From the NCBI RefSeq assembly GCF_001677475.2, contig NZ_CP015229.1: a stretch of 64,000 bases of DNA, one strand, 5' to 3'. How positions within the stretch are numbered: position 1 is the first letter of the stretch; each line of letters opens with the position of its first letter. The notes under the pieces are model-generated. The model worked only from the letters and a program-made list of their open reading frames with translations, made no database searches and had not been told where the DNA came from. The position numbers and the translations under genes were made by a program. Positions 60,853 through 63,844 of the stretch are shown in pieces. Source of the stretch: Escherichia coli (lineage in GTDB: Bacteria > Pseudomonadota > Gammaproteobacteria > Enterobacterales > Enterobacteriaceae).

Positions 60853-60951
60853 ATATCTGTAATAAGAAATAGCCCTCGCCGCTTCCCTCTACAGGAATGG
60901 CGAAGGGCTGTCGGTTTCGACATGGTTGGCCATCGTATGATGGCCTTTTTT
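60853..60951 (+). ncRNA. sdhX: sucD 3'UTR-derived small RNA (SdhX/RybD-like) ending in an intrinsic terminator at 60928..60951
   Basis: Structured 3'UTR (GCCCTCGCC…GGCGAAGGGC) then GGCCATCGTATGATGGCC hairpin and T-run directly after the sucD stop; assignment by position and established knowledge, exact 5' end not determined. Confidence 0.5.
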
Positions 60952-62347
60952 ATGCCTTAAACGTTAACCACGGTCGAAATCTGACCGCTGGCTGAATTAA
61001 TCCGGCTTCTTGTTGAGCTTCGATAACCGGACCAATATCTTTATAAGCCGCTGGCGCTTCTTCAAGACGTCGTTCTTCGCGCAATGTGACGCATTGCCAC
61101 GGCAGCGTTGACTCTTCAGTCACGCGTGAGCGCATGGCCTGCCGACGCTGGCTGCGTCCTGCTCCGTGACTGCATGACCACAGCCACTCCGGGTTGCCGC
61201 AACCTACCGCAAGCCACGAATAATCGCCCATTGAACCAGGGATTAATGCCAGATCACCCACTCGTGCCGGTGTTGCGCCTTTGCGATGAATATTCATTTC
61301 ATGCTCGCGAAGGATGATGTTATGTGGCACATCCACCACCAGATGCGAATTGTCCTGATGAAAGAGATCGGCAAAACATACGCGCACCATTTCGGCAATT
61401 GTGACGCGATTTAACCATGCGTAACGCGCCGCCATCCCCATCGCTTGTAGATATTCCTCCGCCAGTCCACCGGTTAGACCATATAACTCGCTTTGTGGAT
61501 GTTTATGCCCGGCAGGCCAGGCGGCACGGGCGCGATCCATCCAGCGTCTTCCGACGTAAAAGCCAACATCTCGCGATCCACTGTGGATCATCACCACAAT
61601 ATCGCCTGTTTTCAGCCCTTGTTGCCAGGCTACATGGCGATCAACCACGCTATCAACGACCTGAAGTTCAATAAAATGATTACCTGAACCCGGCGTACCC
61701 AGACAAGGATCGCGGAGTAATGCGCGGTCCGTTGCCAGCAGGGCGGGTGGGGCATAACGCGAATGACTGTTATGCTCGTTAAGCCCAATGCAGCGGTCAA
61801 TCTCTTGTACCATTCGGGGGATATTCGTGCGTGTCCAGAGACCTGCTGATGGCAAGGTCGACACGCAATCTGCCGGTCCGTCATCAAAAAGCGCGGTGAA
61901 CGCCTGTGCGGATAACGGAACATCGCGCTCATTTTGCAGTAGCACTTGCGTTAACCGCTGAGCGATGACGTCTTTATGCGCTTCGGCTTGCTCAAGTGTT
62001 AATCCGGTCGTCAGCAGCCGCATGCCACAAGAAATATCGGTGCCGATGGCGGCAGGAATGACTAAATCCGGCGTTGAGGCCACCACCGCGCCAACGGGGA
62101 CGCCATTGCCGGGATGAAAATCTGGCGTCGCGCACGTCTGGCGCACATAACCTGGGTGGTCTGGTAGCTTCACTTCTGCAAAATCAAGCAGTTGTGTTAC
62201 TGCTTTTTCTTCCAGCGGCAGTTCGTCCGGCAGCAGTACGCGGGCACTGGCACCTGATGGACGAGATAATGAAACAATATTGTTGGCGCGGGAAAGTTGG
62301 ATCCCTTTGCGCAGAAAGGCTTTATCAAGCCTTGAAAGATGATGCAT
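60950..62347 (-). CDS. RtcB-family RNA ligase paralog (465 aa) with an about 60-aa N-terminal extension
   Basis: Conserved RtcB blocks PDFHPGNG, AIGTDISCGMR, GSGNHFIE, HSGSRDVG, IPGSMG, CSHGAGR, AYKDI align with my recollection of E. coli RtcB; AGGA RBS before the ATG; stop codon overlaps the sucD terminator T-run. Confidence 0.8.
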   Translation of the reverse strand: MHHLSRLDKAFLRKGIQLSRANNIVSLSRPSGASARVLLPDELPLEEKAVTQLLDFAEVKLPDHPGYVRQTCATPDFHPGNGVPVGAVVASTPDLVIPAAIGTDISCGMRLLTTGLTLEQAEAHKDVIAQRLTQVLLQNERDVPLSAQAFTALFDDGPADCVSTLPSAGLWTRTNIPRMVQEIDRCIGLNEHNSHSRYAPPALLATDRALLRDPCLGTPGSGNHFIELQVVDSVVDRHVAWQQGLKTGDIVVMIHSGSRDVGFYVGRRWMDRARAAWPAGHKHPQSELYGLTGGLAEEYLQAMGMAARYAWLNRVTIAEMVRVCFADLFHQDNSHLVVDVPHNIILREHEMNIHRKGATPARVGDLALIPGSMGDYSWLAVGCGNPEWLWSCSHGAGRSQRRQAMRSRVTEESTLPWQCVTLREERRLEEAPAAYKDIGPVIEAQQEAGLIQPAVRFRPWLTFKA

Positions 62348-62597
62348 AACGCTGTCCTGAAATATAGACGTTAAACAACCCCCTGTATTGCGAGGGTAAT
62401 TTTGTCTTTCCGGTCAGCAGCCAGCAAAAGGGAAAGAAAACGCGCGTAGTGTATGTGGCGATAGCAAGTTTTACAAGTGGTAAATCTGGCTTATTGTTAA
62501 AGAGAAATTATCTTTAGCGAAGCCTTTTAAGGCCATGACTCATTCAATTTAACCGGACACAGAGATTATATAACATAGGGTATCTAAATTTATCATT

Positions 62598-62722
62598 GTA
62601 TACTTGTCATACTTCAAGTTGCATGTACTGCATCGATGTTCGCTCAGCCTGGCCACTTACTTATGTAAGCTTCTGGGAATTCATTATTTGTTGCCTTCCT
62701 GCAACTCGAGTTATTTAGAGTA
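62598..62722. repeat. ERIC (IRU) element, about 125 bp
   Basis: Reverse strand contains GTGAATTCCCAGAAGCTTACATAAGTAAGTGGCCAGGCTGAGCG, close to the ERIC consensus as I recall it; imperfect palindrome; arms match the short copy at 6228..6290. Confidence 0.75.
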
Positions 62723-62938
62723 TATTTACACATATGAATAATATACTTACAATAATGTTTTTAAAGTATTGCATGCGGATAACTGAGGTGAAATTCCTGT
62801 TTTAGGATTATTGTCACTTTATTTTCCTGGTTGGACATATAGCTGACTGGTTTGTTTATTTGAATTATGATATTCATTAGTGCTACTGTTTTTTTATAAA
62901 ATAATTTTTTGAATTGTTATTTTTTCACGGAAGGCATT

Positions 62939-63844
62939 ATGCGAGGGAAAATACCTAAAACGGAACTGCTGGTGACTTTTGAGGTCGTCGCACGTCATGA
63001 AAGTTATACCAGAGCGGCAGAGGAGTTAGCGTTAACCCAAAGTGCAGTATTCAGACAAGTGAGTGCGCTGGAGGAATTTTTACATACTCCGTTATTTTCA
63101 CACTCTAAAAAACGTATTTTTCTTAATGATGCAGGGAAGTATTACCTGGGGATAGTAAAAGAAACATTAAATAAGCTGGAACGCGATACCAATACCATTA
63201 TGACCTGGCAACCTACAGTTAAGGTTATTGAACTTGCCGTGAATCCTACGTTTAGTACCCACTGGTTAATCCCAAATTTACATGAATTCACAAAGTTACA
63301 TCCCGATATTATTGTTAATATTCACTCTTTAGCTAATAACGGCGATTTTCTTAATCGGGAGTACGATGCTGTCATTATGCGCGAAAATTTTTGCGCGCCC
63401 TGGGCGGAAGTAGAATATCTCTTTGAAGAAGAGATTTTGCCGGTATGCAGCGGCAGTTTGCTTGCAATGTCCGATCAAAAACTGTCAGTGGCAGAACTGC
63501 TTACAGAGTTACCACTTCTGCATCAAAGTACCCGTATTACTGGCTGGGAAGAGTGGTTTGCTTTATCTGGCGTTAGCAGTCCGCTGGTCAATAACGGACC
63601 ACGTTTCGATTTGCTTTCAATGCTGATTGCCGCCGTGCGCTCTAATCTCGGCGTGGCGCTGTTACCACGGTTCGCTATTCAACATGATTTGGATAGTGGC
63701 GATATGGTGATTCCCTGTGATGTGCCTATTCGTACCGGTAATCGTTTTATTATGACGTGGCAGGAAGAGAAGTCTGACTCGCCGCACTTGCAGCAATTTC
63801 GTGAATGGTTGCTGGCGAAATCGGTCGTACCGCAGGAGATGTAA
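62939..63844 (+). CDS. LysR-family transcriptional regulator (301 aa from ATG 62939)
   Basis: ORF 62909..63844; ATG at 62939 preceded by GGAAGG; N-terminal helix-turn-helix (…FEVVARHESYTRAAEELALTQSAVFRQVSALEEFL…) plus substrate-binding domain; divergent from the RtcB-like gene. Confidence 0.85.
   Translation: MRGKIPKTELLVTFEVVARHESYTRAAEELALTQSAVFRQVSALEEFLHTPLFSHSKKRIFLNDAGKYYLGIVKETLNKLERDTNTIMTWQPTVKVIELAVNPTFSTHWLIPNLHEFTKLHPDIIVNIHSLANNGDFLNREYDAVIMRENFCAPWAEVEYLFEEEILPVCSGSLLAMSDQKLSVAELLTELPLLHQSTRITGWEEWFALSGVSSPLVNNGPRFDLLSMLIAAVRSNLGVALLPRFAIQHDLDSGDMVIPCDVPIRTGNRFIMTWQEEKSDSPHLQQFREWLLAKSVVPQEM

Follow-up and report, generated by a model that had tools for sequence, protein, structure and literature searches.

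RtcB is a universal 3'-phosphate RNA ligase, and its known bacterial controls are damaged-tRNA sensing through RtcR and sigma-54 and operon pairing with PrfH. The stretch of Escherichia coli DNA analysed here (64,000 nucleotides of contig NZ_CP015229.1, hereafter the window) raises the question of what governs an RtcB gene that stands outside both arrangements. Downstream of sucD, it carries a minus-strand gene for an RtcB-family paralog of 465 amino acids (aa; 60950..62347), which faces a divergently transcribed LysR-type regulator gene (62939..63844, plus strand), and an earlier note on this DNA had proposed that the LysR regulator controls the ligase. Our best overall explanation, to which we assign a probability of roughly 70%, is that a solitary RtcB gene was acquired together with a hut module, that the hut genes were subsequently lost, and that RtcB is expressed from its own promoter behind a leader that masks its start region, with no role for LysR. 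This points to a third control arrangement, in which a widespread solitary RtcB clade (E. coli, Pseudomonas, Burkholderia, Ralstonia, Variovorax) consistently carries a covarying leader RNA that pairs with the start region. If confirmed as a regulator, the leader would allow direct experiments on the conditions under which cells call for the ligase, and hence on what RtcB repairs.

The RtcB paralog and its relatives

The open reading frame (ORF) list, Pfam and alignments identify the paralog as a protein with a whole active site, encoded by an accessory gene. RefSeq calls both genes in E. coli ETEC1738 (97.4% nucleotide (nt) identity), as 'RtcB family protein' and 'LysR substrate-binding domain-containing protein'. 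The Pfam family PF01139 spans residues 63-464 (E 6.3e-97), which amounts to a full-length RtcB domain, and the Pyrococcus horikoshii RtcB residues D95, C98, N202/H203, H234, H329 and the guanylylated H404 are all matched in the alignment. D104, C107, N223, H224, H255, H342 and H394 are invariant among 15 aligned subfamily members, which bears out the Cys/His metal-ligand and guanylylation blocks that the earlier note had read in the translation. By these residues the protein looks like an active 3'-phosphate/5'-OH RNA ligase; its RtcB subfamily is a distinct one of solitary members. The N-terminal extension that the same note called unusual is real, but it is modest (some 23-26 aa when K-12 RtcB is the reference, some 10 aa against archaeal RtcB) and conserved across the subfamily; an internal insert, found also in the long archaeal/Thermus form, accounts for most of the extra length. 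Some E. coli records start the gene about 67 codons downstream (398 aa, 189 member sequences), so that the conserved N-terminal segment is lost; this shorter annotation is probably a start-site call or a truncation.

The paralog shares with K-12 RtcB, the product of rtcBA under RtcR/sigma-54, the Pfam family, the Cys/His/Asp ligands and the guanylylated His, and presumably seals the same 3'-P and 5'-OH ends. However, it is 57 aa longer through the N-terminal segment and the internal insert, and at 29% identity to K-12 RtcB it is a divergent paralog, nearer to solitary homologs at 60-67%. Unlike K-12 rtcB, the accessory gene has no rtcA, rtcR or sigma-54 promoter and is preceded by a structured leader instead; as already noticed from the sequence, neither rtcA nor rtcR occurs among the neighbouring ORFs, the neighbours being sucD and LysR. 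The long-form RtcB proteins of Thermus thermophilus (2EPG) and P. horikoshii (1UC2/4DWQ) are of similar length, have the same internal insert and are the best PDB matches, but the relationship is distant (about 150 bits, E 1e-43 to 1e-44) and the paralog has its own conserved N-terminal 35 residues. A second RtcB paralog is known from some E. coli: the PrfH-associated RtcB2 of strain ATCC 25922 is reported to be dedicated to the repair of ribotoxin damage (PMC9304027). The paralog studied here reaches the cut-off of neither NCBIfam RtcB equivalog (for the PrfH-associated TIGR03073 it scores 167.5 bits against 271.8), has 465 aa against about 356 profile positions, and has no prfH ORF nearby. 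None of the PADLOC defence-system models matched either it or the LysR protein.

Of 5426 complete E. coli genomes, 289 carry the complete gene and 4850 the canonical rtcB. Hits above 83% identity comprise two metagenome proteins and E. coli clusters only, and below them the closest homologs, with 60-67% identity, belong to Pseudomonas and Betaproteobacteria (Chitinivorax, Burkholderia, Ralstonia, Variovorax, Roseateles); this identity gap points to horizontal acquisition. With plasmids as the target, tblastn returned RtcB homologs from Eleftheria and Nostoc only. Homologs in other genera stand alone among unrelated neighbours (the nuo operon, dimethyl sulfoxide reductase, cytochrome c biogenesis, NmrA, FIST), with no conserved LysR neighbour at the loci examined. 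The paralog belongs to an uncharacterised solitary clade. The sole RNA-repair-type neighbour seen among the close homologs (60-67% identity) is a KptA/Tpt1 RNA 2'-phosphotransferase (PF01885) encoded downstream, on the same strand, in Chitinivorax sp. B (L053 7477-8049). Homologs of 44% identity lie near a gene for RlaP (PF10127), an RNA-repair-linked family, and near a flotillin/YqiJ pair (L180 5430-6207; L179 5537-8002).

The leader of the RtcB mRNA

No sigma-54 motif (TGGCAC-N5-TTGCW, up to 2 mismatches) was found in 62348-62938, and the suggestion that this RtcB follows a logic other than that of sigma-54/RtcR stands to this extent, though not by way of LysR: a sigma-70-like promoter and a conserved leader precede the gene instead. 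The candidate promoter (62448..62476, minus strand), read by eye, combines a -35 box TTGTAA (62476-62471), a 17-nt spacer and a -10 box TACACT (62453-62448). Its position is conserved, with a -10 box preceding the leader block in the homologs; several of these have a good TTGACA-17-TAnAnT, and the Pseudomonas boxes are stronger (TTGACA-17-TAGAGT). RtcB transcription would start here and would be constitutive or weakly regulated by sigma-70.

The conserved structured 5' leader of about 95 nt (62348..62440, minus strand), recognised by conservation and a covariance model, is present together with the promoter upstream of all subfamily members examined. The RtcB gene keeps the 108 bp ahead of its ATG in the different genomic arrangements. 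Between Escherichia and homologs of 83-86% aa identity the leader is 87-90% identical, compared with 75-80% for the coding sequence, 57% for third codon positions and about 50% further upstream. The block also precedes the homologs of P. aeruginosa, two other Pseudomonas, Burkholderia, Ralstonia, Chitinivorax, Variovorax, Eleftheria and metagenome bacteria (positions in fetched loci: L004 5906-6003, L006 5907-6003, L177 3906-4003, L053 5903-6003, L007 5907-6003, L179 3897-4003, L181 about 2860-3003). Rfam 15, searched without a gathering cut-off with the window and the P. aeruginosa leader, gave chance-level matches only (e.g. Phe_leader at 15 bits against a gathering threshold of 55), and no motif upstream of rtcB is described in the searchable literature; published work on a P. 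aeruginosa RtcB concerns PA4583, from the RtcR operon, a different gene from the leader-bearing paralog. As far as these two sources show, the leader of the solitary clade is undescribed.

Four helices are predicted, all on the minus strand. P1 joins a pyrimidine run to a purine run, e.g. CUUUCC/GGAAAG (62437-62431/62411-62405). The helix that we call LD joins the GCUGCUGA loop of P1 to the 6-10 nt just before the AUG (62421-62414/62360-62351); in E. coli it reads GCUGCUGA/UCAG-GA-CAGC, with the AGGA Shine-Dalgarno sequence at the bulge. P3 is a short stem (62407-62404/62369-62366) enclosing the P2 hairpin (62397-62392/62383-62378), whose sequence is different in each lineage. P3 likewise varies, from AGAC/GUCU to AAGGUAC/GUACCUU in Burkholderia and Ralstonia and GAAAGAG/CUCUUUC in Variovorax, and LD is extended by differing complementary bases (U-A in Pseudomonas, C-G in Burkholderia, ACC/GGU in L181). 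In the raw sequences of 13 loci from about ten genera, all four helices recur at a nearly fixed distance from the AUG with differing sequences. The plan persists in members of 44-46% protein identity, one with an 11-bp GGCUGCUGACC/GGUCAGCAGCC LD abutting the AUG and another with LD as UCGGCU/GGCCGA and P3 as AGGUUG/CAACUU. GCUGCUGA and GGAAAGAC are conserved as sequence and not just as pairing partners.

A covariance model was built iteratively and its third round, R3, was run over 1.13 Mb of fetched loci; the earlier rounds R1 and R2 had given the distant leaders marginal E-values. The single R3 hit with E<0.005 that does not end at the paralog start codon is a non-leader row (L053 9277-9352), which was part of the seed and hence scores against the model. 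All other hits at this level, from 19 paralog loci, end there, and nothing significant was found upstream of canonical rtcB. On 14 distinct leaders, counted on the model-fitted alignment, R3 has 91.4% of cells paired compared with 81.7% in shuffles and 34-50% in slid controls, and 12 of 20 pairs are changed on both sides compared with 2.6 in shuffles and 2-3 in slid controls. P1, whose 5' strand is out of register, was left out of these counts and is reported from the raw sequences only. A weak match to the covariance model within the window itself (13470-13523, plus strand; 21 bits, E 0.07 in 1.1 Mb) is taken as chance.

Based on these helices, we propose that the P1 loop GCUGCUGA pairs upstream of the AUG and, in E. 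coli, brackets the AGGA Shine-Dalgarno sequence, with the P3/P2 stem-loop in between. The leader fold would occlude the translation initiation region of RtcB, and expression would be set post-transcriptionally by whatever opens the helix. The control logic of this RtcB is likely to be translational masking rather than sigma-54/RtcR. In having an upstream element that pairs with the Shine-Dalgarno/start region, beside a conserved structured domain, the leader resembles mRNA leaders that sequester the ribosome-binding site (translational riboswitches, RNA thermometers, ribosomal-protein leaders). It differs from them in having no Rfam match and in placing the sequestering strand in a hairpin loop, which gives a pseudoknot-like topology; the RNA may toggle between folds or form a pseudoknot.

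Several points weigh against our reading. The promoter match in E. coli is weak (8 of 12 consensus positions) and lies under the threshold of the consensus scan. Single-sequence folding is only mildly better than in shuffles (z = -0.4 to -3.8), the per-sequence shuffle p for the LD helix ranges from 0.004 to 0.6, and the alignment on which the pairs were counted had been fitted by the model. P1 is of low complexity, admits several pairing registers and overlaps P3 in some lineages, so the exact fold is tentative. Variovorax is weak under R3 (E 0.4-0.7), and the Eleftheria and Nostoc leaders were missed by R3 and recognised by eye. The independent leaders number only about 15, as unrelated matches swamped the metagenome search: a DNA-pattern scan of contigs for the core of the leader gave at least 3 true matches, most of the matches listed being an unrelated repeat or a coding, DksA-like 'KLLxWKD' region. 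The direction of the hut event, described below, rests on remnants in O157, E. whittamii and E1V33 without a dated phylogeny.

Part of this would also be expected if the upstream block were a conserved promoter/operator or a protein-binding DNA or RNA element whose helices are by-products of low-complexity, GC-rich sequence. The modest z-scores, the model-fitted pair counts, the low complexity of P1 and the conservation of GCUGCUGA and GGAAAGAC as sequence are all compatible with such an element. We nevertheless consider it unlikely, since P2 and P3 fully change their sequence among lineages and are still complementary at fixed positions, LD is extended by lineage-specific complementary bases, and the slid controls collapse.

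If the leader is a start-masking RNA, the nature of the trigger that opens it might be sought in a ligand. A riboswitch for, e.g., GTP or Mn2+, with alternative pairing of P1 and P3 as the expression platform, would explain the conserved unpaired nucleotides, the exclusive tie of the leader to one gene family and the mutual exclusivity of P1 and P3 in Escherichia, Burkholderia and Chitinivorax. In Pseudomonas, however, P1 does not overlap P3, the leader has a small conserved core and bears no likeness to any Rfam riboswitch, and a regulon of a single gene permits no ligand inference; we regard a riboswitch as rather improbable.

The conservation of GCUGCUGA beyond what pairing needs suggests that something recognises it. 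The exposed loop carries two GCU sites, and GCU is the reported specificity of MqsR-type mRNA interferases. One could imagine that the leader is a sentinel of RNA damage that resets itself through RtcB: a stress-activated endoribonuclease would cut the GCUGCUGA loop to give 2',3'>P and 5'-OH ends; with the start-masking helix shortened in this way, RtcB would be translated from the 3' fragment; and the P1 stem would keep the halves together, so that RtcB would reseal its own leader and shut itself off. Such a device would be a cis-acting, self-resetting counterpart of damaged-tRNA sensing by RtcR and a bacterial parallel to the XBP1 mRNA controlled by IRE1 and RtcB. Taken jointly, these steps form a chain that we offer as speculation and judge improbable as a whole. 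A different idea, that the leader mimics an anticodon stem-loop (CUGG/CCGG stem, 7-nt CUGCUGA loop), was rejected as a general feature, as it fits E. coli only.

Two observations were made in passing during the search for further leaders. The metagenome contig L149 (2762-2850, minus strand) has a GCUGCUGA loop, GGAAAGAC, a hairpin and AACGUCU, with a model E of 0.56, and tblastn found no RtcB downstream; this leader-like sequence is either a decayed copy or chance. A repeat of about 150 nt, AACTGTAACACTGATGTGGAAGAACGGACAGAA...GCTGCTGACTGGAAAGACCGTTCACCGATGGTGGAGCG..., occurs on dozens of contigs in the samples Ga0056115, Ga0056116 and Ga0209568 and matched the leader pattern by chance.

The LysR gene and the history of the sucD-cydA region

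ORF, RefSeq and synteny evidence identify the divergent gene as a GcvA-like (NCBIfam) LysR-type transcriptional regulator (LTTR) of the methylaspartate (glutamate fermentation) cluster. Beyond it lies the 3' end of cobO (63876..64000, minus strand; mapped from a matching locus), the first gene reached of the convergent cobO-fumD-gltP-DUF4387-AtuA-mal-glmESL cluster, which is cut by the end of the window. Kronen and Berg (2015; PMC4682846) draw an LTTR as a member of the glutamate-fermentation cluster. The window LysR is the same gene as their LTTR of the O157:H7 fumD cluster, with 98% nt identity and the same cobO-fumD neighbours, and differs in its upstream DNA, which here is a 465-bp spacer containing an ERIC element and in the O157:H7 copy the 3' end of hutH. 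One genome per species was scanned for the LysR locus; 38 loci were returned, of which 36 were orthologous with enough flank. The cobO-fumD-gltP-mal-glmE cluster stands beside LysR in all 36, which represent about ten enterobacterial genera (among them Citrobacter, Salmonella enterica arizonae/diarizonae, Klebsiella, Enterobacter, Lelliottia, Buttiauxella, Pluralibacter and Raoultella), and among the loci scanned RtcB or hut sequences are confined to Escherichia-type contigs.

Within E. coli, LysR and RtcB are inherited apart. The LysR gene is present in 1119 of the 5426 complete genomes, about 980 of them without RtcB, and the contiguous sucD-RtcB-LysR arrangement of the window occurs in 138 as well as on one Escherichia sp. 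contig; it is an uncommon layout. About 150 RtcB-bearing genomes (289 minus 138) lack it, and in three of these that were inspected hut lies beyond RtcB in 3/3 and LysR follows hut in 2/3. In strains such as ST648 and CUVET16-465, for instance, the order is sucD, RtcB, hutU-permease-hutD-hutI-hutG-hutH, LysR, cobO-fumD-gltP-DUF4387-AtuA-mal-glmE-glmL-glmS and cydA, the hut operon between RtcB and LysR measuring 9 kb in such E. coli. Strain 382634_2f has mngR-mngAB between sucD and RtcB; in most E. coli mngR directly follows sucD, as had been expected for K-12. In O157:H7, LysR comes directly after sucD, and the spacer (L003 3052-3720) keeps two RtcB pieces (44 bp and 57 bp), a 61-bp piece of hutH and the hutH 3' end; similar sucD-LysR spacer remnants, with RtcB and hutH/hutU fragments, occur in E. 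whittamii and Escherichia sp. E1V33. To judge from these fragments, spacers of the O157:H7 type record the erosion of an ancestral sucD-RtcB-hut-LysR layout.

We propose that Escherichia gained RtcB horizontally with the hut module, which was inserted between sucD and the LysR-methylaspartate cluster, and that the hut operon was lost in the E. coli genome of the window, so that RtcB and LysR would face each other by accident. That RtcB and hut move as one module is suggested by a Logan contig of an enterobacterium (SRR33454298), on which a homolog of 86% aa identity is divergent from hutU and flanked by a gene for a tetratricopeptide repeat (TPR) protein instead of sucD. A functional link between RtcB and hut was rejected, as the more distant RtcB homologs are not beside hut. 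LysR being always with the cobO-glm cluster, RtcB occurring there only in Escherichia and hut lying between the two in others, the divergent pair is most simply a by-product of hut loss. It is a mosaic junction of an ordinary kind, within a region already known to vary, and the build-up and erosion of this sucD-cydA region are documented module by module (mng, RtcB, hut, LysR-methylaspartate).

The DNA between the genes points the same way. BLAST puts one module border at 62455, 108 bp ahead of the RtcB ATG, and the other at 62921, 18 bp ahead of the LysR ATG; the intervening 465 bp are specific to this arrangement. That LysR binds the common intergenic region and activates RtcB is therefore highly improbable: the divergent orientation over 591 bp is the classical LTTR layout and the pair is contiguous in the genomes counted above, but only those 18 bp and 108 bp are common to other arrangements, most LysR-bearing genomes lack RtcB, hut intervenes in others, LysR orthologs elsewhere accompany the cobO-glm cluster without RtcB, and RtcB homologs elsewhere have no conserved LysR neighbour. 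LysR probably serves the glutamate-fermentation cluster and not RtcB; the control of RtcB by LysR that the earlier note had put forward is unsupported, and a false lead is thereby removed.

The sucD end and the intergenic spacer

The remaining features of the locus agree with their first description. The RtcB-LysR gap, given at first as about 590 bp, is 591 bp with the LysR ATG at 62939, taken from the RefSeq annotation of ETEC1738. The 465-bp spacer (62456..62920), which stands in place of the hut operon and has no match to hut-type or O157-type loci, is whole in 144 E. coli genomes and confined to the window-type arrangement. It includes the predicted ERIC (intergenic repeat unit) copy of about 130 nt (62594..62725), a dispersed repeat found at a median of 6 places per E. 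coli genome with 80-86% identity, all in unannotated DNA, which identifies it as ERIC, an intergenic repeat about 127 bp long that enterobacterial genomes have in several copies; we take it to match the ERIC1R/ERIC2 primer sequences as well.

On the other side, sucD (59983..60852, plus strand), the last gene of the sdh-suc operon, is annotated as such in matching E. coli records. Its 3' untranslated region (UTR; 60853..60951, plus strand), which we take to be the SdhX small RNA region, gave no match in Rfam and contains a terminator-like site with a hairpin at 60928-60945 and a T-run at 60946-60951. The RtcB stop codon TAA (60950-60952) shares the last two T of this run, as the earlier description of a stop codon inside the terminator had it, and similarity to K-12-type genomes extends up to 60959. 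If RtcB transcription continued through the stop codon, the transcript would lie antisense to the sucD 3' UTR (60853-60950, minus strand). At about 60905-60860 the minus strand has a possible hairpin, AGCCCUUCGCC...GGCGAGGGCU, with a U-rich stretch after it; the terminator scan made no call there.

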